Source: an uncultured archaeon (GTDB taxonomy: Archaea; Nanobdellota; Nanobdellia; Pacearchaeales; GW2011-AR1). From it: DNA of 64,000 nucleotides. Positions 3,264-62,291 of this stretch are shown in pieces. The position numbers and the translations under genes were made by a program. The number at the start of each line of letters is the position of its first letter. Positions within the stretch are counted from its first letter, which is position 1. A model generated the notes under the pieces. That model ran no database searches. It was not told the origin of the DNA and saw only the letters and a list, made by a program, of their open reading frames with translations. The DNA is taken from NCBI GenBank assembly GCA_963845205.1, contig CAWJRC010000004.1, forward strand, positions 105,040 to 169,039. Direction: 5' to 3'.

Positions 3264-3662
3264 ATGTCAAAATATAAAGAGATAATTAAATTGCTGGATT
3301 CAAATGAAAGAATTGATGCGATGGAAATCAGCAGAACATTAAATGATATTTTAAAAGATATTAATGTTCCTAATTATTACATTGCTAAAGGCTTAGGTAT
3401 TGATGAAAAATATTTTTTGCAAATTAAAAATAATTATTATGGGTCTTATACCCATGATGAAAATATTAATTCATTAGAACGTTTAATAAGATTAGTTGAT
3501 TTTGCGGAAGACACTTTAAGCAAAGAGGGGGTAAAAGAATGGCTTGAGAAACCAAATCCAAATCTTGGCTATACTTCTCCGATATTGTACCTTCGTTCAG
3601 ATGAAGAGATGGAAAAAGTTTTATCTTTGCTTGGAGCTATTGGTCATGGGCTTCCAGCATAA
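3264..3662 (+). CDS. DUF2384 (Xre/MbcA/ParS-type antitoxin toxin-binding domain)-like protein, orphan
   Basis: C-terminal WLEKPNPNLGYTSPILYLRSDEEMEKVLSLLGAIGHG matches the W..PnpaLgG.sPl.l...g...V...L..i..G signature of DUF2384; no RES/MbcT-type toxin adjacent. Confidence 0.5.
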   Translation: MSKYKEIIKLLDSNERIDAMEISRTLNDILKDINVPNYYIAKGLGIDEKYFLQIKNNYYGSYTHDENINSLERLIRLVDFAEDTLSKEGVKEWLEKPNPNLGYTSPILYLRSDEEMEKVLSLLGAIGHGLPA

Positions 3663-3719
3663 AAAATAGTCCTTTTATCTCAATAATCCTTAAATAGTGA
3701 ATTGCTTCCCGATTAACCC

Positions 3720-4148
3720 ATGAGAAAAACATTGTCAAGTTTGATCATTGCCGGATTATTGTTCAGCGGATGCTCGCAATATAATCTTACAAGGGATCAA
3801 CTTGTATCAAAAATTGACAAAGAAAGAGTTTTCAAAAAGGGAGATTTTGGGAAATACTGCATCTCTGCTGTCGCTCAAGGTGAAGATATTATAGCAGCTT
3901 ATTCTCTAAATACTAACGGAACTCCCGATTTGGGGGCTGATTTTGAAATAACGAAAATAAGTGCCGACTCTAACGGGGTCCATATCGAAACAAAAGAAAA
4001 TGCAACAATAGTTTTAATTTATAACGGAACAAATGAAATAGAATATTCTGATACTAAAGGAAATGGGATTCTTGATAAAAAAGAGATTATAGACAATGAT
4101 AACAATTTAGAATTAGATAACAATCCCAAATACCAGATCTCTATATGA
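3720..4148 (+). CDS. small lipoprotein (signal peptide + lipobox LFSGC)
   Basis: N-terminal MRKTLSSLIIAGLLFSGCSQ; hydrophilic remainder. Confidence 0.5.
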   Translation: MRKTLSSLIIAGLLFSGCSQYNLTRDQLVSKIDKERVFKKGDFGKYCISAVAQGEDIIAAYSLNTNGTPDLGADFEITKISADSNGVHIETKENATIVLIYNGTNEIEYSDTKGNGILDKKEIIDNDNNLELDNNPKYQISI

Positions 4149-24046: not shown

Positions 24047-24838
24047 TTATGAAGAGTAATTTAATTGTCCTCCGAAATCTTCAGGATGCTGGTCAATCAT
24101 TCCATGAGCCAACGTATCTGCATATGTTCCGACTTGAATATATGAGGTTTCTAATTTAACAAAATAAAGAGAGTAATTCTTTGTGTTAAAGGCATCTATA
24201 GTAGCTTTTACATCATTCATATGATCTGTTACCAATTGCAAGACTGTTTCAAAATCCAAGTCAGGAAAAGCATTTGCATTACTTGACCAAAATTCTGCAC
24301 ATGCAATTTCATATTTTTGCGCAGCAGCGCTGAATTGTGCATTCGCATTAGGGTTGTTGCTCTTTAAAGCAGCAGCATAATTAATGAAGATAGTGGTTTT
24401 ATTATTCCACAAACCAATAAACTGATTAGTAGCAGCCATCCCATATATGGGAATTAGAAGGGCCCCAATTTCATTTATATTATTTTTAAGTTGAGTCAGA
24501 GAAGCACTGTATTCTGCAGATGATCCTAAAGAACTACGCATGGTATCAATTAACAAGAAAGTATGCTCCTGCAGAAGATCATGCATTTTATTATCAAATA
24601 CATTTGCTTTATTTGTAGCAAGGGAAGTCAAATTACACTGCAAATTTTGATCTTCCAAACCGACATTAAGACTAGTGATCTGAGAGTTTAACGAGTTAGT
24701 TTTATATTGAAGGTTAATAAGAGAAAGACCAGCAAAAATCAAAACAGCTACCAAGATTATTGAGAATGTTATAAAAGTGATATGAAAAATTTTATCACTC
24801 CTTTGTTTTCTCTTTTCTGCGGTAGTTCTAGATGCCAT
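24047..24838 (-). CDS. N-terminally anchored coiled-coil/globular surface protein, paralogue of 45265..46029
   Basis: shared blocks HDLLQEHTFLLI..., GALL..IYG..., LWNNKT.IF..YA..., ...MLQLVT...NDVK...DA.N.KNY..YFV. Confidence 0.55.
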   Translation of the reverse strand: MASRTTAEKRKQRSDKIFHITFITFSIILVAVLIFAGLSLINLQYKTNSLNSQITSLNVGLEDQNLQCNLTSLATNKANVFDNKMHDLLQEHTFLLIDTMRSSLGSSAEYSASLTQLKNNINEIGALLIPIYGMAATNQFIGLWNNKTTIFINYAAALKSNNPNANAQFSAAAQKYEIACAEFWSSNANAFPDLDFETVLQLVTDHMNDVKATIDAFNTKNYSLYFVKLETSYIQVGTYADTLAHGMIDQHPEDFGGQLNYSS

Positions 24839-24929: not shown

Positions 24930-25469
24930 TTAATTAGTAATTGTAAAATCAACTTCGCCTATAGTCTGGTTATTTAATGAAAATACTGCCCTGTAATTTC
25001 CATATCCTCCCCTTTGGACTAAAAGTTGAGTAAATGTATTTGATCCGTCTAGTACACCTGTTTCATATGTTGCTCCATCACGTGCAACTGTTATTTTATT
25101 TTCACCGACAAGTTTTCCTGAAGGACTGTAAATATCAAGCTTCTCTTGATCTCCAGTTTTATCAAAAGGATCGTAATCAACTAAAATTATAGGTTCACTA
25201 GCGCCAAAAACATTTTTCATTCCTACATAATCCTGAGGAAATATCTGGCTTCCATTAATATAATTGCAGGCAAAGAAATGTCTCTGGTTCATAGGTGAAG
25301 GTTGTTCAGGCTGATCAGAATCATCTTCTTCGACAGTATTTACTATAACAATATTAGTAGCTCTTACACCTTCATAATTACATCCAAATGTTCCTAATGC
25401 CAATGTACCAGCTAATCCGAGAGCTGCTACACCCTTTCCAACATTTTTGATTATTTTTTCCAATACCAT
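24930..25469 (-). CDS. small secreted/lipo-protein, member A of a 4-member paralogous family
   Basis: signal + Cys; shared GGYGNYRAVF...FTITN C-terminal motif with 42722..43204, 47349..47825, 51757..52167. Confidence 0.55.
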   Translation of the reverse strand: MVLEKIIKNVGKGVAALGLAGTLALGTFGCNYEGVRATNIVIVNTVEEDDSDQPEQPSPMNQRHFFACNYINGSQIFPQDYVGMKNVFGASEPIILVDYDPFDKTGDQEKLDIYSPSGKLVGENKITVARDGATYETGVLDGSNTFTQLLVQRGGYGNYRAVFSLNNQTIGEVDFTITN

Positions 25470-25499: not shown

Positions 25500-25533
25500 C
25501 TTTCCATTTGTTACTACTTATAAGAAACAAATA

Positions 25534-25614
25534 CGCCCACAGCAGGAATCGAACCTGCGAGCCCCGAAGGGCGCGGATTAGCAATCCGCTGCAATACCAC
25601 TATGCGATGTGGGC
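25534..25614 (-). tRNA. tRNA-Ser (GCT)
   Basis: Reverse complement folds: acceptor gcccaca/tgtgggc, anticodon arm gcgga-ttGCTaa-tccgc, long variable arm gcccttcggggc, T-arm gcagg-ttcgatt-cctgc. Confidence 0.85.
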
Positions 25615-25667
25615 ATAGTTTTAGTTATTTACAATCATATTTAAATTTGATTATTTAGAAACAGAAG

Positions 25668-26258
25668 TCATTTAACTGCAACAAAAATATCCCTGCCTTT
25701 CTCTTTTGCTTCATATAATGCATTATCGACTCTTTCCTGAAATTTTTTCTTTGTGTCATTTTTTTTGAACTGAGTAATTCCGCCGCTTACAGTTAATTTA
25801 TATTTCTTTAAGAAAGCGTCGTTATGAACTGCTCTTCTAAGCCTTGCTGAAAATTTTTTGGCTTTTTCAAGATTTGTTGCCGGAAGAAGCATCATAAACT
25901 CTTCCCCCCCAAATCTAGCAGCAACATCTGATTTTCTGATTTGAATTTTTATTATGTCTGCCAATTTTTCAAGCAACTCATCTGCTTTTATATGCCCGTA
26001 TTTGTCATTTATTTTCTTGAAAAAATCTATATCAATCATAACAAGGGAAAGCTTTTGATGTCCTCTTTTTGCTTTTTCAATTTCCATCTCCAAAAAAGTT
26101 TCAAAAAATTTGTTGTTGTATAATCCTGTCTTTTCGTCATGGATTGCAGCATCATAAAGCATCGAAACAGATTCGTTTATTGAAGCGAACAGATCCTGAA
26201 TCTTTTTTCTGAATCTTGGATCAAGAGCAGAAAGCTTATCACCCAACTTTTTATCCAT
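25668..26258 (-). CDS. stand-alone GGDEF-domain diguanylate cyclase (intact GGEEF and RxxD I-site)
   Basis: LVMIDIDFFKKINDKYGH, RKSDVAARFGGEEF, TVSGGI, DNALYEAKEKGRD. Confidence 0.8.
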   Translation of the reverse strand: MDKKLGDKLSALDPRFRKKIQDLFASINESVSMLYDAAIHDEKTGLYNNKFFETFLEMEIEKAKRGHQKLSLVMIDIDFFKKINDKYGHIKADELLEKLADIIKIQIRKSDVAARFGGEEFMMLLPATNLEKAKKFSARLRRAVHNDAFLKKYKLTVSGGITQFKKNDTKKKFQERVDNALYEAKEKGRDIFVAVK

Positions 26259-26292
26259 TAATAATAAAAGAAATCAAATTATTTAAAAGTAA

Positions 26293-27084
26293 TTATTTAG
26301 AAATTTCGCTCGTTCTTCTTTTCTGAATATAAAATTTATCCAAGACTCCCATTGCCTGTTGGCGCTGCTCTGAATTCCCAAGCCCTTTCCAGTCAATAAG
26401 AAGCATGTCAATGTCTTCTTCTGTACCTGCAATTGCTTCCTGAACCATTTCTTCGGTCAAAGGAAAAACATACTGCGAGATTATATGAGAAATCGCAACA
26501 TTCGAATCCATCTGGATCTTGTTAAAGCTCGGGCAGTAATGCGGACCTCCTATTCCTATAGCAATTTCATTGTAAGGATTTTCCTTGAATTCGTTCATGA
26601 TCTCATAAATTGATTTAGCAACAATGTAAGCTGCTTTCCTGTCTTTCCATTCTTTTTCTGTTGCTCCAATCTCAACAAAAATACACGGCTTGTTTATTAA
26701 AGGACCGTGATGAGTGCATTCCAAGGTCAGATCATAATTTTTCAGGTGAAATTTATCTATGTTAAATTTCAATTTTTCAAATAACTGTTTCTGAAACAAG
26801 GCAGATGTTTTGCAGACTCTGCCGCTCTGGCCCCCGAATTTCGCATCCCGAAAATTTCCAGGAGCATGAATAGATATTGTTTTACCTCCTTCTTTTGAAA
26901 CATGCCTTGAAGCAAAAATTATAAAATCATGGGGATTTATTTTTTCAAGGTTAAGATTTTCTGTGAAAACTATCTCATTTTCAACCAGATAAAAATTAAA
27001 ATCCCCGAACTGGCTTAACTGAGTTGTAATATTTATCCCGGCTGTGTCAAGCTTGCTAGCTACAATTAAAAAATTATGATACAT
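26293..27084 (-). CDS. dtdA: archaeal-type D-aminoacyl-tRNA deacylase (DtdA/DTD2)
   Basis: FASRHVS, ISIHAPGNF, ECTHHGP, IGGPHY. Confidence 0.65.
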   Translation of the reverse strand: MYHNFLIVASKLDTAGINITTQLSQFGDFNFYLVENEIVFTENLNLEKINPHDFIIFASRHVSKEGGKTISIHAPGNFRDAKFGGQSGRVCKTSALFQKQLFEKLKFNIDKFHLKNYDLTLECTHHGPLINKPCIFVEIGATEKEWKDRKAAYIVAKSIYEIMNEFKENPYNEIAIGIGGPHYCPSFNKIQMDSNVAISHIISQYVFPLTEEMVQEAIAGTEEDIDMLLIDWKGLGNSEQRQQAMGVLDKFYIQKRRTSEISK

Positions 27085-30386: not shown

Positions 30387-33215
30387 ATGTACGATATAGA
30401 AGGGGAAAAGAAAATCCTGAAATTCTGGAAAGAGAAAAAAATATTTGAAAAATTGATAAAAAAGAACAAGGGCAAAAAAAGATTCAGCTTTATTGACGGC
30501 CCGATTACCGCAAATAATCCCATGGGGGTTCATCATGCATGGGGAAGGACATACAAAGATGTTTTCCAGAGGCTGAAGGCGATGCAGGGATTTGAAGAAA
30601 GATTCCAGAACGGATTTGACTGTCAGGGACTGTGGGTTGAAAGAGAAGAAGAAAAAGATCTTGGACTGAAAGACAAAAAAGACATTGAAAAATTCGGAAT
30701 ATTAAATTTTGTCAATGCCTGCAGAAAAAGGGTTGAAAAATTTTCCAAGATACAGACAGAACAGTCAGTAAGACTTGGAATGTGGATGGACTGGGAAAAT
30801 TCTTATTACACTATGACAGACAATAATAATCTTCATAACTGGTTCCTGATCAAAACATACCATGACAAAGGATGGCTCTACAAAGGAAAGGATATTGTTC
30901 CGTGGTGCTGGAGATGCGGAACCGCAAGCTCAAAGCATGACATTGTTACAGAAGGTTACAAAGAAGTAACACATCGGGCATTATTCATGAGATTTCCTGT
31001 TAAAGGAAAAAAGAATGAATTCTTTTTAATTTTCACGACAACTCCCTGGACTGTCCCGGCAAATGTCGCAATTGCGGTAAACAAAGATATAATATATGTC
31101 AAGGCAGAGCAGGAAGGCAAATATTACTGGCTTGCTGAAAAAAGACTGAATGAATTAAACGGGGATTACAAAATCATCGAGAAGAAAAAGGGAAAAGAGC
31201 TTGAAGGAATCGAATATGAAATGCCCTACAAAAATTTTCCAGAGCAAAAAAAATCACAGCATAAAGTTGTTCTTTGGGAACTGGCCTCTGAAGAAGAAGG
31301 AACAGGAATTGTGCACATTGCTCCCGGATGCGGTGCAGAAGATTATGAATTAGGAAAAAAATTAAAATTAAATGTAATCTCCCCCCTTGATGAAGCAGGA
31401 ATTTATTCTGAAGGATTCGGGGAATTCAGCGGAAAGAAATATTCTGAAGTAAACAAAGAAATTTTAGCTGATTTAGAAAAAAAAGGTTTCGCATACAAAG
31501 TAGTCCCTTACAAGCACAGGTATCCGCACTGCTGGAGATGCGGAGAGGAACTTGTTTTCAGATTAGTCAGCGAATGGTACATTAAATGCGATGAGATGAG
31601 AAAGAAACTTATTGAAGAAAACAGAAAAGTAAAATGGTATCCTGAATACGGAAAAGTCAGGCAGGAAGAATGGTTCAAGAACATGGGGGACTGGCTTATA
31701 TCAAGGGAAAGATACTGGGGACTTCCGCTGCCTATATGGGAATGCAAATGCGGAGAGATTTTTGTCGCGGGAAACATGAAAGAATTAAGGGAAAGGGCAG
31801 CCGACAAAAAGAAAGTTGACAATCTTAAAGAAATCCACAGGCCGTGGATAGACGGAATAAAAATAAAATGCCAAAAATGCGGAAAAGAAGCTGAGAGAAT
31901 CAAGGATGTTGGTGATGCGTGGCTCGACGCTGGAATTGTTCCATTTTCAACTTTGAATTATTTAACAGATAGAGAATACTGGAAAAAATGGTTCCCTGCA
32001 GACTTAATTTCAGAGAGCATGCCCGGACAGTCGAGAGGATGGTTCAATGCCCTGATGTGGGCGAGCGTTGCAATAACAGGGAAAGCTCCTTACAAATCCC
32101 TTTTAGGATATGAAACTCTTAAAGACGAAAAAGGAAATGAGATGCACAAAAGCAAAGGAAATGCTATCTGGTTTGACGAAGCTGTTGAAAAAATCGGGGC
32201 AGATCCTATGAGGCTGCTTTACTGCCTGCAAGATCCAAGCCAGGAGTTAAGATTCGGATTCAATGTTGTAAAAGAGCCGACAAACAATCTTACAATTTTC
32301 TACAACATAAGCAAACTTGTAGAGAAATCAAAGGGAACAAAGAAACTCAATATCGAAGACAAATGGATAATCAGCAAACTTAATTCCCTGATTAAGACAA
32401 TGACAGAAGAACTGGACAATCTGCATCTTTATGTAGCTGCAAGAGCTCTCCAGAATTTCTGGGCCAATGACTTAAGCAGGGGATATATCCAATTTGTAAG
32501 AGACAGACTTGCTGAAAATGATGAAGCCGCAAAAGGCACACTTAATGAAGTTTATCTTACACTGTTGAAACTTGCTTCTCCGATAATTCCGTTCACTACA
32601 GAAAAAATCTGGCAGGAATTAAAAGAGAAAAAAATTGTGAATGAAGAGTCTGTTCATTTATCTAACTGGCCAAAAATAAATAATAAAAAAATTGATGACA
32701 AACTTGAGCAGGAATTCCAGAATGCAATGAAAATAATTGAAATGGGATTAGCAGAAAGAGATAAAATTCAGATCGGACTTAAATGGCCTCTTGCAAAGAT
32801 TACAATTTCAACAGATAAAAAATTAGGAAAAGAAATTCTGGAGATTGTTTCAAGGCAGCTGAATGTCAAGAAAGCTGAAATCAAAAATTCAAAGGAGATG
32901 GAAGCTCTTTTTGATACAAAAATGACTCCTGAACTTGAAGCAGAAGGCTATGCAAGAGAAATATCAAGGCAGGTGCAGGCATTCAGAAAAGAACTTGGAC
33001 TGAAAAAAACAGACAATATTGAGCTTGCAATATTCTGCGATGACGAACTTAGAAAAATGCTTGAAATGCAGAAAAAATTTGTAGCAGACAGGACGAACTC
33101 GACGGAGATTGAGCTTTTTTCCCAAAATGTTACAACTGACAAGGAAAGATTTAAAAAGAATATTGAGTTTAAAATTAAAGATAAAAGAGGAAAGATAGGA
33201 ATTATAAAAAAATAG
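30387..33215 (+). CDS. ileS: class Ia aminoacyl-tRNA synthetase, most consistent with isoleucyl-tRNA synthetase
   Basis: GPITANNPMGVHHAWGRT (HIGH region), GFDCQGLWVE, DWLISRERYWGLPLP, KMSKS-like EMHKSKGN, four CxxC zinc knuckles. Confidence 0.7.
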   Translation: MYDIEGEKKILKFWKEKKIFEKLIKKNKGKKRFSFIDGPITANNPMGVHHAWGRTYKDVFQRLKAMQGFEERFQNGFDCQGLWVEREEEKDLGLKDKKDIEKFGILNFVNACRKRVEKFSKIQTEQSVRLGMWMDWENSYYTMTDNNNLHNWFLIKTYHDKGWLYKGKDIVPWCWRCGTASSKHDIVTEGYKEVTHRALFMRFPVKGKKNEFFLIFTTTPWTVPANVAIAVNKDIIYVKAEQEGKYYWLAEKRLNELNGDYKIIEKKKGKELEGIEYEMPYKNFPEQKKSQHKVVLWELASEEEGTGIVHIAPGCGAEDYELGKKLKLNVISPLDEAGIYSEGFGEFSGKKYSEVNKEILADLEKKGFAYKVVPYKHRYPHCWRCGEELVFRLVSEWYIKCDEMRKKLIEENRKVKWYPEYGKVRQEEWFKNMGDWLISRERYWGLPLPIWECKCGEIFVAGNMKELRERAADKKKVDNLKEIHRPWIDGIKIKCQKCGKEAERIKDVGDAWLDAGIVPFSTLNYLTDREYWKKWFPADLISESMPGQSRGWFNALMWASVAITGKAPYKSLLGYETLKDEKGNEMHKSKGNAIWFDEAVEKIGADPMRLLYCLQDPSQELRFGFNVVKEPTNNLTIFYNISKLVEKSKGTKKLNIEDKWIISKLNSLIKTMTEELDNLHLYVAARALQNFWANDLSRGYIQFVRDRLAENDEAAKGTLNEVYLTLLKLASPIIPFTTEKIWQELKEKKIVNEESVHLSNWPKINNKKIDDKLEQEFQNAMKIIEMGLAERDKIQIGLKWPLAKITISTDKKLGKEILEIVSRQLNVKKAEIKNSKEMEALFDTKMTPELEAEGYAREISRQVQAFRKELGLKKTDNIELAIFCDDELRKMLEMQKKFVADRTNSTEIELFSQNVTTDKERFKKNIEFKIKDKRGKIGIIKK

Positions 33216-34884: not shown

Positions 34885-36573
34885 TTACATTTCTTCCATT
34901 ACTTCTATTCCCAAAAGATAAAGAGAATTTTTTACTGTTGTTCTGAAAGCATTTACTAACATAAGCCTGAATGCTTCTGACTTGTCGCCGATCACAGGGC
35001 ATGAATGATAAAATTCATTAAATTTCTGAGCGAGATCGAAAGAATAATTTGCAATCAATGCAGGATTCAGATCTTTCTGTGCAGTTTCAACAACTTCCGG
35101 AAATTCTGAAATTTTTTTAACCAAGGCATTTTCATTCGGGGTTAAATCCTGAATCTTTATTTTTGACTTGTTGAATTTCCCTGCCTTTGCTATTATAGAA
35201 GAAGCTCTCGCATAACTGTACTGAATGTACGGGCCAGAATCTCCTTCGAAATTCAGAGCCTGCTCCCATGAGAAATTAACGTCTGCCGAAGGAGCAGATT
35301 TTAATACAATATATTTCACTGCGCCGACACCTACTTTTTCCGCGTCGCCTTTTGTTTTCCTCTTTTTTATTTCCTCTCCTGCCTTTGAAATTGTTTTCTG
35401 AAGAACATCTTCAAGAAGGATAATATCTCCTGTTCTAGTAGCCATTATTTCATTCCCAAACTTTATTGTCCCGAACGGAAGATGAACCAGCTTATCTGAA
35501 AAATCATAGCCAAACAATTTTAAAATTTTAAACAGCCAGCTGAAATGATCGTTCTGCCTGAAATCTGTTACATAGATCATCTCGTCAAAATTATATTTTT
35601 TATACCTCTCAATTGCAGCTCCTATATCATATGTTATGTAGGATGCTGTCCTGTTGGAGCGGAGTATAAATTTTTTTTCTCCGTTTATCTCAACATAGAT
35701 TGCTTCATGTTCTGATTTGGCAATTTTTTTGAAAAGAGCATTAAGAACTATCTGCTTTCCTTTTTCCGCAAACTCGCTCTGACCTACGGTTTCATTGAAA
35801 TTCACTCCGAGCAATTCATAAACTTTATCAAAGCCTTTTCCTGAAGCCTCTCTTATGTCATTCCAGATTTTTTCTGTCTTCTTGTCCCCCATTTCCAGAA
35901 GCTTCAGCTTTTCTTTTGCGCGCTTTGTCCATTCATTGTCCTGAAATTCCTCTTCCATTCCTTCTGTAATCTCTGACTTTTCTTTTTCGCAGAATTTGAC
36001 ATACAATCTTAATAATTCCTGAACGGGATCTTTTGCAAGAGCTTTTTTGTCAAGCCATAAGTCATATGCAACGATCAGTTTTCCTATATGCAAGCCGATA
36101 TCACCCAGATAGTTTATGCCTGTTGTTTTGTACCCGAGAAAATCATAAATCCTCATCATAGAATCCCCCAGAATTGTAGAGCGGATATGCCCTATGTGCA
36201 TCGGCTTTCCGATGTTCGGCCCTGAGAAGTCAATTACAACTTTTTTCCCCTTTCCCACAGGAGATTTTCCGAAATTCGCATTTATCTTTATCATCTTTGC
36301 GGCAAGGATTTTTTTGTTTACGAAAAAATTCAGGTAAGGCCCTTTGCTTTCAACTTTTTCTATCTCTTCCGGAAGTTTTATTTTCTGCGCAAGATGCTCT
36401 GCAATCTTGTCAGGAGATTTTTTTTCTTTTTTTGAAAGAATAAAACACGGAAAGGCATAATCGCCCAATTCCTGCGATGGGGGGACTTCAAGAAGTTTTT
36501 CTATCTCCTCATTTTTTAATTTTATTCCCTCTTCCTGCAGAATCTTGATTATTACCTCTTTCATAAAAGTCAT
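34885..36573 (-). CDS. argS: arginyl-tRNA synthetase
   Basis: HIGHIRSTILGDS; class I fold, 562 aa, C-terminal ...EEM. Confidence 0.85.
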   Translation of the reverse strand: MTFMKEVIIKILQEEGIKLKNEEIEKLLEVPPSQELGDYAFPCFILSKKEKKSPDKIAEHLAQKIKLPEEIEKVESKGPYLNFFVNKKILAAKMIKINANFGKSPVGKGKKVVIDFSGPNIGKPMHIGHIRSTILGDSMMRIYDFLGYKTTGINYLGDIGLHIGKLIVAYDLWLDKKALAKDPVQELLRLYVKFCEKEKSEITEGMEEEFQDNEWTKRAKEKLKLLEMGDKKTEKIWNDIREASGKGFDKVYELLGVNFNETVGQSEFAEKGKQIVLNALFKKIAKSEHEAIYVEINGEKKFILRSNRTASYITYDIGAAIERYKKYNFDEMIYVTDFRQNDHFSWLFKILKLFGYDFSDKLVHLPFGTIKFGNEIMATRTGDIILLEDVLQKTISKAGEEIKKRKTKGDAEKVGVGAVKYIVLKSAPSADVNFSWEQALNFEGDSGPYIQYSYARASSIIAKAGKFNKSKIKIQDLTPNENALVKKISEFPEVVETAQKDLNPALIANYSFDLAQKFNEFYHSCPVIGDKSEAFRLMLVNAFRTTVKNSLYLLGIEVMEEM

Positions 36574-42721: not shown

Positions 42722-43204
42722 TTAATTTGAAGGGGAAATTGTAAAATAACTTTCTCCATCTTCTTGAAAATTATCTTGGCCAGATGCTCTTTCAAACCAG
42801 ACTACTCTGTAAGTCCCATCTCCTCCAATAGAACTGTTCATTATCTTATTCATTAATCTTCCATCTGATTCTCCTGCATGACGGTAATCTCCATTACAGG
42901 GTATAATTTTTTCTTCCCATACTACTGGTTGGTTATTAGAGTTATATACCACCCATTCAACATCTTCTCCTGTATACCAGTTGGGATCGTGTCCTACGCA
43001 GATTATTGACTCATTATCCTTAAAATTATTTTTTATATTCACATATCCTTCAGGATAATATATTTGATTGTCCCCGTGAGTATCTGACCAATAATTGCAT
43101 TCGAAGAAAATCTTTCCTGGATCGTAAGCTTGAGCTGTTCCCATAGCCCCTGCAGACAAAGCAGCAGCCAATACTAAAGCGCCAATATTTTTTTTCATGT
43201 TCAT
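42722..43204 (-). CDS. small secreted protein, family member B
   Basis: signal MNMKKNIGALVLAAALSAGA; HDPNWYTGEDVEW, GDGTYRVVWF, FTISPSN. Confidence 0.55.
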   Translation of the reverse strand: MNMKKNIGALVLAAALSAGAMGTAQAYDPGKIFFECNYWSDTHGDNQIYYPEGYVNIKNNFKDNESIICVGHDPNWYTGEDVEWVVYNSNNQPVVWEEKIIPCNGDYRHAGESDGRLMNKIMNSSIGGDGTYRVVWFERASGQDNFQEDGESYFTISPSN

Positions 43205-45264: not shown

Positions 45265-46029
45265 TTATTTGAACAGATTGGGATTCTGATTGATAATCCC
45301 CTGCGCAATCATGTCCGCATATATTCCAACCTGGGTGTATGCCGCATCTTCTTCTACAAAATAAGCATTATAATTTTTTGAATTCCAGGCATCTACAGCA
45401 GATTTCACATCATTAACATTGGCAGTAACCAGCTGCAGCATTGTATCATAGTCGAATACAGGATAAGGATTGTTATTGTTTGCCCAAAATTGGGCAACGC
45501 TTGCTTCATAGTCTAAAGCAGCAGTGTTGAAGATAATATTAGCTTTTGAAACATTATTCTTTACGTTATTGGCGTATGTAAGGAATATATTAGTCTTATT
45601 ATTCCACAAGCTTACAAATTGCTGCGCGACATTAGCTCCGTATATTGTTGTTAAAAGAGCGCCGACTTCATTTACATTATTCTGAAGCGCAACTAGAGAA
45701 GCATTATATGAAGCAGAAGAGTCCAATGAACGGCGAGTAGTGTAAATTAGCAAGAAAGTATGCTCCTGCAATAAATCATGAAGATGAGAATCAAATTGAT
45801 CCGCCTTAGTCAAGCTGACATTAAGATCATTCTGCAAAGTCTGGGTCTGCAGATTAGCGACCTGAGTATTTAGTCGAGAAATCTGAGCAGTCAAATCAGA
45901 AATCTGAGACTGTGATTTAGTAACCTGTATCTGAGACTGATTATAGAAATATGCCAGAACAGCCAAAGCAACAATTAAAATTGCCAAGATCAAAACCTGA
46001 AGTACACGTGTAGCTTTTGCTGCCCCCAA
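45265..46029 (-). CDS. N-terminally anchored surface protein, paralogue of 24047..24838
   Basis: ~50% identity over the C-terminal 170 aa. Confidence 0.55.
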   Translation of the reverse strand: MGAAKATRVLQVLILAILIVALAVLAYFYNQSQIQVTKSQSQISDLTAQISRLNTQVANLQTQTLQNDLNVSLTKADQFDSHLHDLLQEHTFLLIYTTRRSLDSSASYNASLVALQNNVNEVGALLTTIYGANVAQQFVSLWNNKTNIFLTYANNVKNNVSKANIIFNTAALDYEASVAQFWANNNNPYPVFDYDTMLQLVTANVNDVKSAVDAWNSKNYNAYFVEEDAAYTQVGIYADMIAQGIINQNPNLFK

Positions 46030-47348: not shown

Positions 47349-47825
47349 ATGAACATGAAAAAAAATGTTGGCGCTTTAGTATTGGCTGCTGCTATGTCTG
47401 CAGGAGCTGTTGGAGTTGCTGATGCTGCTTATGAACCTGGCAGAGTTTTCTTTGAATACAATTATTTTTATCCCAATGCAAATAATCAAGCCGACTACCC
47501 GGAATCTTTTAACGGGATAAAAACTTATTTTCGAAGTAACGAGCACTTGTTACTAGAAGGACACGATCCCAACTGGTATACAGGAGAAGATGTTGAATGG
47601 GCAGTTTATGGTCCTAATGGAAACTTGGTATTTGCAAAAGATCAGATTCAAATATTTAACGGAGGATGGGAAAGAGTAGGCAGTAACGGAGATTTGATGT
47701 CTTATCTTCTAAGTTCTCCTAATGGTGGATACGGAAATTACAGAGTTCTTTGGTATGACAAGCCGTATGGAGCAGGATACGATTATCAATTTGATGGTGA
47801 AAGTGATTTTAATATTTCCCAGTAA
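47349..47825 (+). CDS. small secreted protein, family member C
   Basis: signal MNMKKNVGALVLAAAMSAGA nearly identical to member B; HDPNWYTGEDVEW, GGYGNYRVLWY, FNISQ. Confidence 0.55.
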   Translation: MNMKKNVGALVLAAAMSAGAVGVADAAYEPGRVFFEYNYFYPNANNQADYPESFNGIKTYFRSNEHLLLEGHDPNWYTGEDVEWAVYGPNGNLVFAKDQIQIFNGGWERVGSNGDLMSYLLSSPNGGYGNYRVLWYDKPYGAGYDYQFDGESDFNISQ

Positions 47826-51756: not shown

Positions 51757-52167
51757 TTAATCAGTAATTGCAAAATCGTCTTCTCCAATCAACTGGTCAT
51801 TCAGGAACCACACTGCCCTGTATTTTCCGTACCCGCCTTTTTCAAAAAATTCCTGCGTTGTTTTATTGGAGTCGAGACAGCCGACTTCCCAGGCAGAATC
51901 ATTGTAGGGAACAGATTCGCTCTCTTCAAAAACAACATCTCCTGACGGGCCGTAAATGCAAAGCTCTTCTACGTCACCTGCTTTATTATCAGAATAATGA
52001 TCAAGAAAAACCAGAGGTTCGCTGAGCTTAAAATTTGTTTTCAGCCCTGCATATTCCATTGGAAATACCCAAAGCCCGTGAAACCAATGCTCCTCTGCTT
52101 TGACAGCACAGGAAGAGAGAGCCAAAGCTCCTGCAAGACCCAAAGCAACAGTTATCTTTTCAAGCAT
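51757..52167 (-). CDS. small lipoprotein, family member D
   Basis: signal + lipobox ALSSC; GGYGKYRAVWFLNDQLIGEDDFAITD as in member A. Confidence 0.55.
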   Translation of the reverse strand: MLEKITVALGLAGALALSSCAVKAEEHWFHGLWVFPMEYAGLKTNFKLSEPLVFLDHYSDNKAGDVEELCIYGPSGDVVFEESESVPYNDSAWEVGCLDSNKTTQEFFEKGGYGKYRAVWFLNDQLIGEDDFAITD

Positions 52168-53654: not shown

Positions 53655-53912
53655 CTATCTTTCATAAATGTTTTTCCTATGACCTATCTTAATTATGTTC
53701 ATTCTGTTGTTTTTTTGATCAAAATCAAAAATAACCCTGTAGTCTCCAACTCTTAATCTAAATGCCGATTCCCCCTTTAATCTTTTGAATTCTTTTGCTT
53801 TTGGATTTTCCGAAAACTCTTTAACATATTTTATAATCCTTTTAGACAACAATGATTCAAGTTTGCTCAGAAAGTCTATGGATTTCCTGCTCCAAATTAC
53901 CTCATAATTCAT
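53655..53912 (-). CDS. relE: RelE/ParE-family toxin
   Basis: FRLRVGDYRVIFDFDQKNNRMNIIKIGHRKNIY. Confidence 0.8.
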   Translation of the reverse strand: MNYEVIWSRKSIDFLSKLESLLSKRIIKYVKEFSENPKAKEFKRLKGESAFRLRVGDYRVIFDFDQKNNRMNIIKIGHRKNIYER

Positions 53913-54136
53913 TTTAATCCAAACATCCTTTCGACTTCTTCCTCAGTATAAAATTCTCCTTTCTCAATTTTTTTTCTTGCTTCTTTAATCTCTTTCTTTG
54001 TTTCTTCATTTAATTCCAAATGATCTTCAAGCAAAACTTCAATTATATCATTGTAAGTCTCCCGTTCATGAAGTTTTAACTTGTCAAGCATTGTTTTTGT
54101 CTCGGGATTTATTCTAATTGTTGTTTCCATATACAA
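53909..54136 (-). CDS. type II antitoxin (RelB/RHH-like), overlaps relE by 4 nt
   Basis: 75 aa; TIRINPETKTMLDKL...; C-terminal EIEKGEFYTEEEVERMFGL antitoxin-like tail; palindromes tatacaattgtata / atacatatgtat at its 5' end. Confidence 0.6.
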   Translation of the reverse strand: MYMETTIRINPETKTMLDKLKLHERETYNDIIEVLLEDHLELNEETKKEIKEARKKIEKGEFYTEEEVERMFGLK

Positions 54137-56555: not shown

Positions 56556-57431
56556 ATGAAAAATAAGAGGGGGCAATTTTTCATTATTGCTGCAATAATC
56601 ATAATAACAGTGATAATAAGCATTGTAACTGTCTCGAATTACAGCCAGCCGAAACAGACAACAAAACTTTATGATCTTGGACAGGAACTGGGAATTGAAA
56701 GCCAGCAGGTTCTTGATTACGGAACATACAACGAGCTAAACGATACTGAGATGCAATCACTAATGGAAAATTTCATCCAGAATTATGTAAGCTACATGGG
56801 AGGAAAAAGGAATATTTATTTCGTGTTCGGAAACGCGCAGGTCATTGACGTTGTCGGTTATCAAGAGTTATTAAACGAAAGCGTCTGCATAACATTAAAT
56901 CCTGTAACTCATGTTTGCGGGGACGGAACTGCAATAGCAGGAGAGGGATGCGATGTAAACACAAGCATATTCGGGGATATAGGATGCGCAGGCGACTGCC
57001 AGCTTGAACAGCCCGGATGCAATATTTCTGCTGCTTCAAATGAAACAGTAAATGAATCAACAGTAAATCCCGGAGAATACTGCGACGGAAATAATATGAG
57101 CGGGCTCAACTGCACTTCATTCGGATTTGACGAACCTGCAAGCGAACCTCAGGGACAGACAGCACTTCAATGCACTGCACAATGCGGATTTGACACTTCC
57201 GGATGCGTAATTCCACAGCCGCAGAATCAGCCAGAATGCCAGAACCTCACTGTCCTCGGACAGCCGCAATCACCTCAGCAATTTCCAGAAGAAAACGGTG
57301 CAATTTCAAAAGTAGCGATAAACCTTGCAGGAAACCAGTATGAATTCGCGCTCAAGCCCGGAGAAAATTTCTATTTTGTAATCTGGGAAACAGAAAACGG
57401 AGAAAAAAATGTTATTACAAGCCCGCAATAA
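56556..57431 (+). CDS. secreted Cys-rich protein with class III (type IV pilin-like) signal peptide
   Basis: MKNKRGQFFIIAAIIIITVIISIV; 20+ Cys in C-terminal half. Confidence 0.5.
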   Translation: MKNKRGQFFIIAAIIIITVIISIVTVSNYSQPKQTTKLYDLGQELGIESQQVLDYGTYNELNDTEMQSLMENFIQNYVSYMGGKRNIYFVFGNAQVIDVVGYQELLNESVCITLNPVTHVCGDGTAIAGEGCDVNTSIFGDIGCAGDCQLEQPGCNISAASNETVNESTVNPGEYCDGNNMSGLNCTSFGFDEPASEPQGQTALQCTAQCGFDTSGCVIPQPQNQPECQNLTVLGQPQSPQQFPEENGAISKVAINLAGNQYEFALKPGENFYFVIWETENGEKNVITSPQ

Positions 57432-57951
57432 AAAAGGACTCAGCGAAGTCATTGGATACATTCTGCTAGTCGCGGTTTCGATAACAATAAGTGTGCTCGT
57501 ATACCAATGGCTTGTAACATATGTCCCATCGCAGTCGCTTCAGTGCGATGACGGAACTTCTTTTTTTGTAAAAGATTTTTCCTATGACTGCACAAACCAG
57601 ATATTAAACATAACCCTGGAAAATAACGGAAAGTTCAGCATTGAAGGATATTTTATTCATGCTTCAAACAACAGCGACACCAGCCAGCTTGCAACAATAG
57701 ATTTATCACAGAAAGTTCTTAATTACAGCGGAGCATATCCGTACGGAAATTCTGTAATATTCTCGCAGCTTGTAAACAATGAACTGGCTCCTGACGCAAC
57801 AGGAATAAAACTCCATGTCTTCAATGTATCGGGATACGGAAACCTTAGCAAGATAGAGCTTATACCGACGAGAATACAGGATGTTCAGGGAAAAACAGTT
57901 TTAGTAACATGCACTGATTCAGAGGTTACAGAACTGCTTACATGCAACTGA
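57409..57951 (+). CDS. archaeal type IV pilin-like protein (pilin_N class III signal)
   Basis: ARNKKGLSEVIGYILLVAVSITISVLVY. Confidence 0.7.
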   Translation: MLLQARNKKGLSEVIGYILLVAVSITISVLVYQWLVTYVPSQSLQCDDGTSFFVKDFSYDCTNQILNITLENNGKFSIEGYFIHASNNSDTSQLATIDLSQKVLNYSGAYPYGNSVIFSQLVNNELAPDATGIKLHVFNVSGYGNLSKIELIPTRIQDVQGKTVLVTCTDSEVTELLTCN

Positions 57952-57989
57952 ACAGAAAGGATTTAAAATAGAAGGATATTAATATTAAA

Positions 57990-58475
57990 ATGGCAAGAAG
58001 GAGTGTGATAAAAAAGAAAGGGCTTTCCCCTGTAATAACAACAGTTCTTTTGATTGCTCTGGTCGTTGTAATAGTTTCTATAATTTTCTTATGGTTTAGG
58101 GGAATGGTGCAGGAAGGAGTCACAAAATTCGGGAAGAACATAAATCTGGTATGCGATGATGTAAAGTTCGACGCAACATATGCGGCAGGAACCTTAAGTG
58201 TAGTCAATACAGGAAACATTCCGATATTCAGAATCGAGATAAGAATTTCAAACAATGGAAATTTCGTGACAGAAGACATTATGAACACAAGTGCAGGAAG
58301 CAGCTGGCCTTCCGGAGGGCTGGGGCAGGGAGCAACTTTCTCAGGAAACATACAGAGTGATATCGGAAGCGCAAATGACATTCTTATAATACCCGAACTT
58401 ATAGGAACATCACCCAGCGGAAAAGAAACTTTAATATGCGGAGGACAGTATGGAAAGGATATCACGATCTCGTAA
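57990..58475 (+). CDS. archaeal type IV pilin-like protein
   Basis: KKKGLSPVITTVLLIALVVVIVSIIFLWF. Confidence 0.7.
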   Translation: MARRSVIKKKGLSPVITTVLLIALVVVIVSIIFLWFRGMVQEGVTKFGKNINLVCDDVKFDATYAAGTLSVVNTGNIPIFRIEIRISNNGNFVTEDIMNTSAGSSWPSGGLGQGATFSGNIQSDIGSANDILIIPELIGTSPSGKETLICGGQYGKDITIS

Positions 58476-58977
58476 AAAGGGGCTGTCTGAAGTTGTAACA
58501 ACAGTAATTCTCATCGCAATAAGCCTCGCTGCAATCGTAATTGTCTGGGCTTTTGTGAATACATTCATAACCAAACAGGTAAGCAGCAGCGAATCATGCT
58601 ACGGAAATTACAACCAGGTAAAAATCAACGGGCAGTACACCTGCCTTAATACTTTATCAGGGGGCCAGTACAGCTTTAACTTTTCCATGACAATCGGGGA
58701 CATCAGCGTCGATAAAGTTCTTGTCTCAGTATCAGCAGGAGGAGCAGTCAACACATACACGATCACAAACACACCGCAGAACCTTTCGGGGATAACAATG
58801 GAAAACGGAAGCAGCGAAGTTGTTCTTCCAGGAAAAAATTCAGGATTGACTTATTATTTAACAGGATTTTCAAGCCCTGTTGATTCTGTACAAATCGCAC
58901 CGGTCATCGGAGGAAACCTCTGCTCGGTTTCTGATACACTTGCTGAAATCTATGACTGCTCAATCAGCGCCGAGTAA
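58450..58977 (+). CDS. archaeal type IV pilin-like protein
   Basis: SRKKGLSEVVTTVILIAISLAAIVIVWAFV. Confidence 0.7.
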   Translation: MERISRSRKKGLSEVVTTVILIAISLAAIVIVWAFVNTFITKQVSSSESCYGNYNQVKINGQYTCLNTLSGGQYSFNFSMTIGDISVDKVLVSVSAGGAVNTYTITNTPQNLSGITMENGSSEVVLPGKNSGLTYYLTGFSSPVDSVQIAPVIGGNLCSVSDTLAEIYDCSISAE

Positions 58978-59016
58978 AAGAATTAATTATTTAAATTAAA
59001 TTTTACTTGTACATTC

Positions 59017-59538
59017 ATGAATAAAAGAGGGCAGGTCTGGATTGAAACAGTAATTTATACTCTAATCGCTTTTGTAATGATAGGGCTTGTCCTTTCTTTC
59101 GCCCAGCCGAAAATACAGCAGCTGCAGGACCAGGCAGTAGTGCAGCAGTCAATCAACTTACTGACCCAGATTGACTCAACAATAAACACGCTAGGCGGCG
59201 AAGGGAATTTAAGAATAGTCGAGCTGGGGATCAAGCAGGGGGAACTTAATATCGACGGCGTAAATGACCTTATCAGTTTTGACATGAACACCCAGAGCGC
59301 GTACAGCGAGCCGGGGAAAAACATCAGCAACGGAGATATACTGATCGACACAGAAAAATACAACAGCGAATACAAAGTGACCCTGACGATAAATTACCAG
59401 CAGGATTATGACATAGAATTCAACGGAGCAAATGCTCTGCAGACCCTCACTGCCGCTTCGACGCCCTATGAACTGACAATAGCAAATGCAGGAGAGGACG
59501 CTGAAAACAGAACAATACTAAACATGTCTCTTAGCTAA
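59017..59538 (+). CDS. class III signal peptide (pilin-like) protein
   Basis: MNKRGQVWIETVIYTLIAFVMIGLVLSFA. Confidence 0.6.
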   Translation: MNKRGQVWIETVIYTLIAFVMIGLVLSFAQPKIQQLQDQAVVQQSINLLTQIDSTINTLGGEGNLRIVELGIKQGELNIDGVNDLISFDMNTQSAYSEPGKNISNGDILIDTEKYNSEYKVTLTINYQQDYDIEFNGANALQTLTAASTPYELTIANAGEDAENRTILNMSLS

Positions 59539-59546
59539 ATAAAAAA

Positions 59547-61097
59547 ATGGATAATATTGAAGATTACGAAAAAGTAAAAATAGACTTTCATCCGAAGACG
59601 CCTTTGCTTGAAAGAATAGAAGACAAATCGCAGATTGATATCAGATACTGCCTTATCGCGCCGTTCGCATTTGTCCACATTTACTGGGATGCGAAAATCT
59701 ACGAGCTCGTTTATGAAATCGAAGAGCCGATACTTACAGAGCAGGAAAAATCCTCAAGAGACCAACTCACTTCAGCGATAAGAGACCTTATAAATTTTGA
59801 AGGAGTCGTGGAAAAAAATGAGGACACGCTTTTGGAATACATTGACAAGAGGCTTAAAATTCTCGCGGTAGAATTCGGAATGGACATACCTTATGAATCT
59901 TACAAAAAAATATATTATTATCTCTGCAGGGATTTCATCGGGATAAACGAGATAGAGCCCATAATAAGAGATTATTTTGTCGAGGATATAGAATGCAACG
60001 GGATCAACAGCCCAGTCTACATAATACACCGACTTTACAGAAGCATAAAGACGAATGTCAATTTCACGAGCATGGACAGCATCGAGAGTTTTGTAGAAAA
60101 ACTCGCGCAGAGATGCGGGAAGCATATATCCTACGCAAATCCGATTCTCGACGGAAGCCTGCCGGACGGAAGCAGAGTCAATGCTACATATACAACAGAT
60201 ATAACCAGCAAGGGGCCGACATTCACAATAAGAAAGTTCACAAAAACTCCATGGACTCCTATACAACTTCTTTCATTCAAAACACTCAGCCCCGAGATGC
60301 TCGCATATCTCTGGATCCTTATACAGTACAAGATGAATATTTTAGTGACAGGGGGAACAGCTTCGGGAAAAACGACGCTGCTTAATGCCATCGCTTTTTT
60401 CATACCTCCGGAAGCAAGAGTTGTAAGCATTGAGGATACGAGAGAACTAAATCTGCCTAGGGAAAACTGGCTTCCTAGCGTCACGAGAGAATCGACAGAA
60501 AACAGAAGAGAAAATGAAATAACATTATTCACTCTTTTGAGAAGTTCTTTCAGACAGAATCCAGATTATGTAATTGTCGGTGAAGTAAGAGGAAGAGAGG
60601 CGTCTGTCCTTTTCCAGGGAATGGCTTCGGGGCACTCATCGCTGAGCACAATGCACGCTGATTCGGTCGAGACACTGATAAAAAGACTTGAAACTCCGCC
60701 GATAGAACTTTCTCCGACGCTATTGAATGTTCTTGACTGCGTCTGCATCATGACGCACGCGATAGTAGGAAACCAGGAGACAAGAAAATTAAGGGAGATA
60801 GTCGAGATAGTAAATGTAAATCTCGACGGAACCGCAATAATAAACACTCCCTTCACATGGAGTCCCGCAGACGACAGATTTTATTTCAAGGGCGGCGAAA
60901 GAGTTTTTGAAAAAATTGTTAGAAGATACGGGATAAGAATGGAAGAGCTTGAAGCTGAATTCAGAAAAAGATCACAGATAATATATGAAATGTCAAAAAG
61001 GGGAATTTCAAAATTTGAAGAGGTTCAGGAATTAGTAAACCAGTATTACAAAAGGCCAAACGAAGTACTCAAGCAGTTCGGGATCGAACAAATTTAA
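59547..61097 (+). CDS. type IV pilus/archaellum-type secretion ATPase (FlaI/PilB/TadA family)
   Basis: Walker A TGGTASGKTTLLNA, Asp box, GEVRGREA, His box. Confidence 0.85.
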   Translation: MDNIEDYEKVKIDFHPKTPLLERIEDKSQIDIRYCLIAPFAFVHIYWDAKIYELVYEIEEPILTEQEKSSRDQLTSAIRDLINFEGVVEKNEDTLLEYIDKRLKILAVEFGMDIPYESYKKIYYYLCRDFIGINEIEPIIRDYFVEDIECNGINSPVYIIHRLYRSIKTNVNFTSMDSIESFVEKLAQRCGKHISYANPILDGSLPDGSRVNATYTTDITSKGPTFTIRKFTKTPWTPIQLLSFKTLSPEMLAYLWILIQYKMNILVTGGTASGKTTLLNAIAFFIPPEARVVSIEDTRELNLPRENWLPSVTRESTENRRENEITLFTLLRSSFRQNPDYVIVGEVRGREASVLFQGMASGHSSLSTMHADSVETLIKRLETPPIELSPTLLNVLDCVCIMTHAIVGNQETRKLREIVEIVNVNLDGTAIINTPFTWSPADDRFYFKGGERVFEKIVRRYGIRMEELEAEFRKRSQIIYEMSKRGISKFEEVQELVNQYYKRPNEVLKQFGIEQI

Positions 61098-62267: not shown

Positions 62268-62291
62268 AGAATAATATCCAAAAAGAATTAT

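Follow-up and report, generated by a model that had tools for sequence, protein, structure and literature searches.

The 64-kb window analysed here (the whole stretch of 64,000 nucleotides, numbered from its first letter) carries on its minus strand, at 25668..26258, an open reading frame (ORF) with an ATG start that encodes a protein of 196 residues. Pfam, NCBIfam, a structure model and a structure search all place it as a stand-alone GGDEF protein, i.e. a predicted diguanylate cyclase, the synthase of cyclic di-GMP (c-di-GMP). The Pfam family PF00990 (GGDEF) matches with E=1.5e-42 and 145.6 bits (cut-off 23.8) over positions 1-160 of the 161 in the profile, and the NCBIfam model TIGR00254 scores 155.7 bits (cut-off 37.4). 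As per the Pfam envelope and the phmmer matches to diguanylate cyclases of the Protein Data Bank (PDB), where 3ign is matched at 1.7e-31 and WspR and PleD are also found, the catalytic domain spans residues 38-190 (25689..26147, minus strand). On the reverse complement, the active site (A-site) GGEEF, residues 117-121, lies at 25896..25910 (GGG GGG GAA GAG TTT) and the allosteric product-inhibition site (I-site) RxxD, here R108-K-S-D111, at 25926..25937 (AGA AAA TCA GAT). Five residues (VAARF) separate the two, and the C-terminal tail reads D178-x-A-L-Y-x-A-K185-x-x-G-R189. An RxxD at this distance is frequent, though not obligatory, in diguanylate cyclases under feedback control. An earlier note on this DNA had claimed a complete GGDEF domain with GGEEF, RKSD five residues upstream and the D/LY/AK/GR tail; the full-length PF00990 match bears out the first point and all of the motifs can be read off the DNA. 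Residues 1-39 (26142..26258, minus strand) make up an N-terminal extension, delimited from modelled helices, conservation and structural matches, in which a short helix is followed by a long 'stalk' helix at 14-39, with 37 residues standing before the Pfam domain; by analogy this helix is presumed to be a dimerisation or partner-docking element. No REC, PAS, GAF, CHASE or membrane input domain was found in the 196 residues. Also, the protein falls below every NCBIfam equivalog cut-off for the named diguanylate cyclases (SiaD, PleD, DgcA and others), the best scores being 161.9 bits for SiaD (cut-off 290) and 159.2 bits for PleD (cut-off 474), with only the GGDEF part covered in each.

An alignment of 34 homologues (71% mean column identity) was used to examine conservation. 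D76, D78, K81, N84, H89, D93, R108, D111, R115, G117-F121, K185 and R189 are invariant in all of them, and so are A11, L12, D13, P14, F16, L23, S30, S32, L34 and Y35 of the N-terminal extension. GGEEF is present in 14 of the 14 related loci scanned. When aligned to PleD, WspR and 3ign, the metal-binding D76, the guanine contacts N84 and D93 and the phosphate contacts K185 and R189 show the same spacing as in PleD, as do the I-site and the A-site; the PleD residues in question are D327, N335, D344, R359, D362, G368, K442 and R446 (Chan 2004, Wassmann 2007). With the A-site, the I-site and the metal and guanine-contact residues all invariant, the description of the domain as catalytically intact stands, and the same invariance excludes a grouping with degenerate or non-catalytic GGDEF proteins. 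The AlphaFold2 model, a monomer run on the family alignment, has a predicted local distance difference test score (pLDDT) of 91.5 and a predicted TM-score (pTM) of 0.80, and it shows a short helix at 3-10, the long helix at 14-39 and a canonical GGDEF domain. Foldseek was used to match this model to the PDB, and the top matches (E about 1e-17, probability 1.00) are SiaD, WspR, DgcB and PleD, the highest ranks going to SiaD with its activator SiaC (7e6g), a GCN4-zipper-WspR fusion (3i5c) and the coiled-coil plus GGDEF part of Caulobacter DgcB with c-di-GMP (6ttr). The best matches are active, c-di-GMP-bound cyclases, and they match with their stalk helices included; coiled-coil stalks occur among them, and in the monomer model a 26-residue helix precedes the GGDEF domain.

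The likeness to the bacterial enzymes can be stated more closely. SiaD (7e6g), the DgcB construct (6ttr), WspR (3bre/3i5c) and PleD (1w25/2v0n) have the GGDEF fold in common with the archaeal protein at query-normalised TM-scores of 0.74-0.85, and over the domain they are 31-39% identical to it in sequence. GG(D/E)EF, RxxD five residues upstream and the metal, guanine and phosphate contacts occur at identical spacing on both sides, and the helix that stands directly before the domain in the stalks of SiaD, DgcB and WspR is likewise found here. In contrast to these enzymes, the archaeal protein has no input domain, is complete with 196 residues and has an archaeal-type TATA box upstream, and no SiaC-like, EAL, HD-GYP or PilZ partner was identified for it. 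As modelled, it looks like the minimal active unit excised from the bacterial enzymes, a stalk together with the catalytic domain. Taking sequence and model together, we consider it quite probable that the protein is an active c-di-GMP synthase, inhibited by its product and working without a sensor.

A GGDEF fold may also serve another chemistry, and the protein could make 3',3'-cyclic GMP-AMP (3',3'-cGAMP) or c-di-AMP in the manner of Hypr-GGDEF enzymes, make linear pppGpG, or act mainly as an NTPase. The Hypr-GGDEF cGAMP synthases (GacA / Bd0367 type) have the fold and the two-nucleotide cyclisation chemistry in common with the protein studied here. It may be noted that Hypr enzymes have Ser/Thr at the position of PleD D344. 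At the equivalent position, the archaeal family has the guanine-reading Asp D93, which is invariant in the 34 homologues and departs from the Hypr signature; this favours specificity for GTP and makes a cGAMP synthase of the Hypr type less likely. Also, the invariant RxxD I-site binds c-di-GMP and makes sense only with c-di-GMP present, so that its retention is hard to explain unless c-di-GMP is really made, and the canonical GGEEF is unlike the degenerate motifs of ATPase-type GGDEF domains. There are points in favour of a different product, namely that GGDEF enzymes with altered products exist (Hallberg 2016, as represented by its citation in PMC10249747), that no canonical c-di-GMP partner was found nearby, and that diadenylate-cyclase (DAC) genes or a CBS-pair gene adjoin the GGDEF gene in three related loci. 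On balance we hold such an alternative chemistry to be improbable.

The surroundings of the gene are archaeal, as the earlier note had stated. In the window, elongation factor EF-1α (TIGR00483, 623 bits, cut-off 540), archaeal DnaG (NF003108, 387 bits, cut-off 300) and the diphthine synthase Dph5 (TIGR00522, 183 bits, cut-off 114) were all identified, along with an aEF-2-type EF-G, RNA polymerase A'', S12, S7 and an archaeal-type D-aminoacyl-tRNA deacylase, DtdA. The last of these (26293..27084, minus strand; PF04414, E=4.8e-55) lies upstream of the GGDEF gene and is co-directional with it. On the other side, 52 nt downstream, is a tRNA-Ser(GCT) at 25533..25615 (minus strand), identified by ARAGORN and scoring 59.1 bits with the Rfam tRNA model, which agrees with the tRNA-Ser gene described earlier as a neighbour. 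From it on, the stretch between the GGDEF gene and the genes for RNase HII and SMC is variable, its gene content differing across the syntenic loci. The product of the gene that comes next on the minus strand (24930-25469) carries a signal/lipobox-like sequence at its N-terminus and has three paralogues encoded in the window (51757-52167, 47349-47825 and 42722-43204), and thus fits its earlier description as a secreted-protein paralogue. As a side observation, these four genes form one of two lineage-specific families of secreted, lipobox or membrane-anchored proteins, the other being encoded at 24047-24838 and 45265-46029. Neither family has a Pfam match, their paralogues are 30-46% identical, and both are absent from the syntenic loci of the related genomes; they are candidate surface or host-interaction proteins.

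A check of base composition and codon usage, which had been proposed earlier, revealed no deviation of the GGDEF gene from the window. Its GC content is 0.332 and its GC content at third codon positions 0.289, as compared to window means of 0.354±0.038 and 0.299±0.064, and in codon usage it agrees with the remainder of the window at a correlation of r=0.83 (mean 0.78). There is hence no compositional sign of a foreign origin. Upstream of the gene we found a putative archaeal TATA box, TTTTAAATA on the coding strand (26280..26288, minus strand), that ends 21 nt before the ATG. The element TTTWWATA with an identical 21-nt spacer to the ATG is conserved in 8 loci (the window and the related contigs that we label L082, L085, L086, L087, L001, L002 and L088), while the intergenic sequence flanking it diverges among the same loci. 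The position fits the established archaeal promoter geometry for a leaderless or near-leaderless mRNA, and we infer that the element is a TATA box driving such a transcript. The spacer from the DtdA stop to the GGDEF start (26259-26292 in the window) is exactly 34 nt in four genomes (the window, L085, L086 and L087). In L090 the GGDEF ATG comes directly after the DtdA stop codon TAA, and there the gene is probably co-transcribed with that of DtdA.

The adjacency to DtdA recurs in the related contigs. In the window and in L082, L083, L085, L086, L087, L001 and L090 the DtdA gene immediately precedes the GGDEF gene, and in L002 and L088 a single gene separates the two. We considered whether DtdA and the cyclase might be linked in function and rejected this, because their adjacency is part of an extended, conserved run of housekeeping genes and the cyclase gene is preceded by a TATA box of its own. 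The block reads ArgRS-TrmB-IleRS-Dph5-small membrane protein-DtdA-GGDEF-(variable segment)-RNase HII-SMC, and the same placement (DtdA-GGDEF...RNase HII-SMC) was found in ten other independent contigs from different samples, of up to 464 kb, which include L082 (447 kb), L086 (464 kb), L087 (240 kb), L085, L088, L090, L092, L001 and L002. Two further members, in L003 and L089, lie in different surroundings, which are nonetheless archaeal to judge by TFS-type zinc ribbon and CDC48 genes. On comparing the genes one by one with those of the window, L082 is 75% identical for GGDEF, 81% for DtdA, 82% for SMC and 81% for RNase HII; the corresponding values are 62%, 65%, 65% and 70% for L001, and 53%, 58%, 55% and 53% for L088. 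In L090 we obtained 41% for GGDEF, 41% for DtdA and 45% for RNase HII, with no value for SMC. The divergence of the GGDEF protein (about 75% down to 41% identity) therefore keeps pace with that of its housekeeping neighbours, and a fall in step of this kind argues for vertical inheritance from a common ancestor and rules out a chimeric contig. As judged from these comparisons, a broad set of Pacearchaeota-type Nanoarchaeota had the gene already in their common ancestor, and it has since been passed on by vertical descent at a single place in the chromosome.

These results also decide on the most obvious objection, that the gene is a recent horizontal acquisition from a bacterium or sits on a chimeric or misbinned contig. 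GGDEF proteins are overwhelmingly bacterial, the earlier archaeal reports were suspected contamination (PMC5847659), and a close homologue (P0027) carries the label 'Patescibacteria group bacterium'. Against this stand the gene order kept in the ten contigs, the identity co-varying with that of the housekeeping neighbours, the normal GC content and codon usage and the archaeal TATA box conserved at a fixed distance. The best bacterial match among the matches listed is only 48% identical and multidomain. The 'Patescibacteria' label itself is contradicted by gene content, as the contig so deposited, L085 (DATJQE010000036.1, GCA_035506035.1), carries archaeal DtdA, DnaG-type Toprim, RNase HII and SMC in the order of the window; its bin or label is probably wrong. 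We regard recent transfer and chimerism as refuted and give them a negligible probability. A chimeric or bacterial locus, which had been named earlier as a possible way for the claim to fail, is thereby excluded, and it is almost certain that this is a genuine archaeal gene.

The family is large. In a search of 5.8 billion proteins we found more than 120 clusters, at the 90% identity level, that are 69-92% identical to the query; nearly all have 192-198 residues (range 192-213), and the named sources are Pacearchaeota, Nanoarchaeia or Nanoarchaeota. HMMER, run on 1.84 billion representatives, yielded further short full-length relatives of 193-233 residues, down to about 41% identity. The taxonomy of the divergent representatives was inferred from gene context, and among the relatives of the divergent member P0227 the labels are once more Nanoarchaeia, Nanoarchaeota or Pacearchaeota. 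Two other scans returned mostly bacterial GGDEF genes: the GTDB genome scan with a single-protein query contained at least three family members, and the metagenome scan with an alignment query at least about five. For comparison with bacteria, we took the best 77 relatives from GTDB species representatives among the matches listed. These are at most 48% identical to the query, in the GGDEF domain only, and have 219-1705 residues, 76 of the 77 being proteins of 275 residues or more with a C-terminal GGDEF domain, as opposed to 182-200 residues for the archaeal family members in the same comparison.

A neighbour-joining tree was made from 121 domain sequences and 156 columns, with the query's nearest matches as the bacterial sample. 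In this tree, the sequences of known archaeal context form one branch with no bacterial sequence inside (bootstrap 72 of 100), and the syntenic core has a bootstrap value of 92 of 100. The short-protein branch has at its base P0264 (L091, 231 residues), which lies in a PAS/FG-GAP context that is uninformative as to domain of life and is not counted as archaeal. The pattern argues against repeated recent transfer and is not decisive for the ultimate origin; the whole clade may go back to an ancient bacterial source. Between the two outcomes that the earlier note had proposed to distinguish by phylogeny, recent transfer from bacteria and an archaeal clade, both the tree and the co-divergence with the neighbours favour the latter.

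We then turn to the proteins and RNAs with which a c-di-GMP synthase is known to work. No EAL, HD-GYP, PilZ or MshEN domain was found among the approximately 77 ORFs of the window by Pfam or by a six-frame motif scan of it, none was found by motif scan in 189 kb of related archaeal loci, and none occurs in the precomputed Pfam lists for eight contigs. The regular-expression scans for the four domains gave two spurious matches, both in short non-gene ORFs. The earlier remark that the window has no EAL, HD-GYP or PilZ partner is therefore correct. Also, no c-di-GMP riboswitch (GEMM-I or GEMM-II) reached the Rfam gathering threshold in the window, where only tRNAs were found, and the T2SSE/PilB-like ATPase at 59547-61097 has no MshEN-type c-di-GMP motif in its N-terminal 167 residues.

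Some related loci do have genes beside the GGDEF gene that may relate to cyclic dinucleotides. In L090, a divergent syntenic locus, the gene convergent with that of the cyclase (3607-3984, minus strand) encodes a CBS-pair protein; domains of this type are known to bind c-di-AMP and adenosyl ligands. In the Pacearchaeota contigs L086 (10592-11164, minus strand) and L087 (11106-11696, minus strand), a DAC (PF02457) gene for a protein of about 190 residues is convergent with the GGDEF gene, and its product has the DGA motif, 'GTRHSA' replacing RHR and a hydrophobic C-terminal tail. No DAC gene was found in the window. The dacZ orthologues are stated to be absent from DPANN in a 2025 paper (PMC12699388). 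The c-di-AMP made by DacZ of Haloferax is the only cyclic-dinucleotide messenger demonstrated in archaea (PMC12699388), and DacZ differs from the GGDEF protein in having an unrelated fold (DAC as opposed to GGDEF) and a different nucleotide. Together, the DAC and CBS genes in the three loci hint at a small cyclic-dinucleotide neighbourhood.

The missing partners invite a reading in which the enzyme is active and its product works outside the archaeon, c-di-GMP being released or delivered to alter biofilm formation or motility in a bacterial partner or community. The DNA examined yielded neither an intracellular receptor nor an enzyme for the breakdown of c-di-GMP, the cyclase lacks a sensor domain, the genomes are very small (contigs of 447-934 kb), DPANN archaea are described, in the part of the literature consulted, as generally host-associated, and diguanylate cyclase genes are 1.7-fold more frequent in sediment-attached ultra-small prokaryotes (PMC9938205). 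Yet this reading is purely speculative, no exporter is associated with the gene, the conserved I-site speaks for regulation of c-di-GMP inside the cell, and the survey for receptors covers only about 10% of a genome; we give it a slim chance. Even less likely is a role as the signal generator of an anti-virus defence system (CBASS-like or Cas10-palm-like) in place of a housekeeping messenger enzyme. It could be proposed from a weak match to the Cas10/Cmr2 palm2 family PF22335, which is flagged for many homologues too, and from the defence and toxin-antitoxin genes elsewhere in the window. The match has only 23 bits against a cut-off of 27 and reflects the common palm fold, PADLOC gave no match for the GGDEF protein or five of its neighbours, and no effector gene is adjacent. 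Moreover, the neighbourhood is a conserved housekeeping one with vertical inheritance, whereas defence genes are typically located in variable islands.

For the c-di-GMP synthase that we favour, the following mode of action may be proposed. Two GGDEF domains would be paired, most likely by parallel N-terminal helices, and each would hold one GTP·Mg2+ through D76, E119/E120, N84, D93, K185 and R189. The dimer would then join the two GTP into c-di-GMP. Binding of c-di-GMP at RxxD (R108, D111) would cause non-competitive product inhibition and so cap its concentration. Since the cyclase has no input domain, its output would be set by transcription, here from its own archaeal promoter, and by GTP supply together with product inhibition, and possibly by a docking partner; such a protein could bind the conserved N-terminal helix, as SiaC does on SiaD.

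A more far-reaching proposal is that we have here the first archaeal c-di-GMP system, in Pacearchaeota-type Nanoarchaeota, in which a single sensor-less and feedback-limited cyclase has been kept in sub-megabase genomes since the ancestor of the group, and in which readout and turnover would be performed by proteins unrelated to PilZ, MshEN, EAL and HD-GYP or the product would act on a host or partner. We put this forward tentatively, as one possibility that is less likely to be right than wrong. As to the main reading, that of an active archaeal diguanylate cyclase, four points weigh against it. So far, no archaeon is known in which c-di-GMP has been detected (PMC8646023, PMC10249747). In the 64-kb window and 189 kb of related loci, which amount to about 10% of one genome, we found none of the known phosphodiesterases, receptors or riboswitches for c-di-GMP. 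The pairing of two subunits by the N-terminal helix is proposed by analogy, as the AlphaFold2 run was that of a monomer. Also, the tree is a rough one of moderate support, with a bacterial sample biased to query-like sequences.

Some other features of the window and its syntenic loci may be recorded. IleRS (window 30387-33215, plus strand) is 81% identical to that of L087 and 41-43% identical to those of L082, L086 and L001, and ArgRS (window 34885-36573, minus strand) is 79-82% identical to those of L082 and L086 and 34-41% to those of L001, L002 and L092. The identities of these two synthetases are bimodal among the syntenic loci, whereas those of all neighbours fall off gradually, a pattern suggesting that in some lineages a foreign synthetase has taken the place of the resident one. 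A low-GC block (0.27-0.31) at 61185-63257 (minus strand) has a GmrSD_N+HNH endonuclease and an EcoRI-type adenine methylase (E=2e-123), and is probably a recently acquired restriction-modification island. Two toxin-antitoxin-like pairs were found. The one at 3264-4148 (plus strand), between ribosomal protein S7 and aEF-2, consists of an Xre/MbcA/ParS-type antitoxin and an unannotated ORF of 142 residues, and the one at 53655-54136 (minus strand) of a ParE toxin and a DUF7557 partner. The region 56556-61097 (plus strand) has a GC content of 0.41-0.43 as compared to about 0.35 elsewhere, and contains five consecutive ORFs without a Pfam match followed by the T2SSE/PilB-like ATPase; it is probably a type-IV-pilus-like surface-filament locus.

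In the literature, GGDEF proteins in archaea have been viewed with reserve. Galperin et al. 2018 knew of just one GGDEF protein from archaea and were sceptical of those from metagenomes (PMC5847659), for Römling 2022 the occurrence of GGDEF in archaeal contigs 'needs to be confirmed' (PMC10086821), and a 2023 review of archaeal second messengers described the cyclases as almost exclusively bacterial (PMC10249747). In the literature searched, Braun et al. 2021 alone refer to GGDEF in DPANN, giving one sentence to more than 300 BLAST hits, many in Asgard and DPANN (PMC8646023). As in our case, the GGDEF of Methanocella arvoryzae (CAJ37382) and the REC plus inactivated GGDEF of 'Ca. Micrarchaeum' (PMC5847659) lie on DNA assigned to Archaea. 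These earlier cases (PMC5847659, PMC8646023) were single genes, inactivated, or suspected contamination, and were reported without further analysis, as opposed to the present family, which is intact, comprises more than 120 clusters, is syntenic and co-diverges with housekeeping genes across lineages. In the literature searched, we found no paper that ties a GGDEF protein or diguanylate cyclase to a specific Pacearchaeota, Woesearchaeota or Nanoarchaeota protein; the one paper in which both terms occur is a count of cyclase genes in ultra-small prokaryotes, where Pacearchaeota appear just in a cited reference, and the GGDEF gene receives no mention in a survey, from 2026, of 208 complete genomes of Nanobdellota (bioRxiv 10.64898/2026.05.13.725050). 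Of the two general statements in the earlier note, the rarity of archaeal GGDEF domains holds for cultured archaea and for the literature (PMC5847659, PMC10249747) but not for the metagenome genomes of Pacearchaeota-type Nanoarchaeota, in which the family is common. The other, that c-di-GMP signalling is essentially unreported in Archaea, is right in so far as the reviews up to 2023 describe c-di-GMP as undetected (PMC10249747), although GGDEF hits in DPANN had already been noted in passing (PMC8646023).

The enzyme class is thoroughly known, and no new mechanism is described here. What deserves attention is the phyletic position of the family, its minimal architecture, its vertical inheritance in sub-megabase genomes and its lack of a recognisable partner. 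For one large DPANN lineage, the locus contradicts the view that archaeal GGDEF genes are contamination, as an intact gene lies among core archaeal genes behind a predicted archaeal promoter and has co-diverged with them. The protein is small, soluble and easily expressed, and would allow a direct test of archaeal c-di-GMP synthesis. A cyclase without a recognisable partner in a genome of less than 1 Mb would also be a clean system for finding new c-di-GMP receptors or degradation routes. The family further bears on the origin of c-di-GMP signalling, which may have existed before the bacterial-archaeal split or may have been acquired once, in ancient times, by a host-dependent archaeal lineage.

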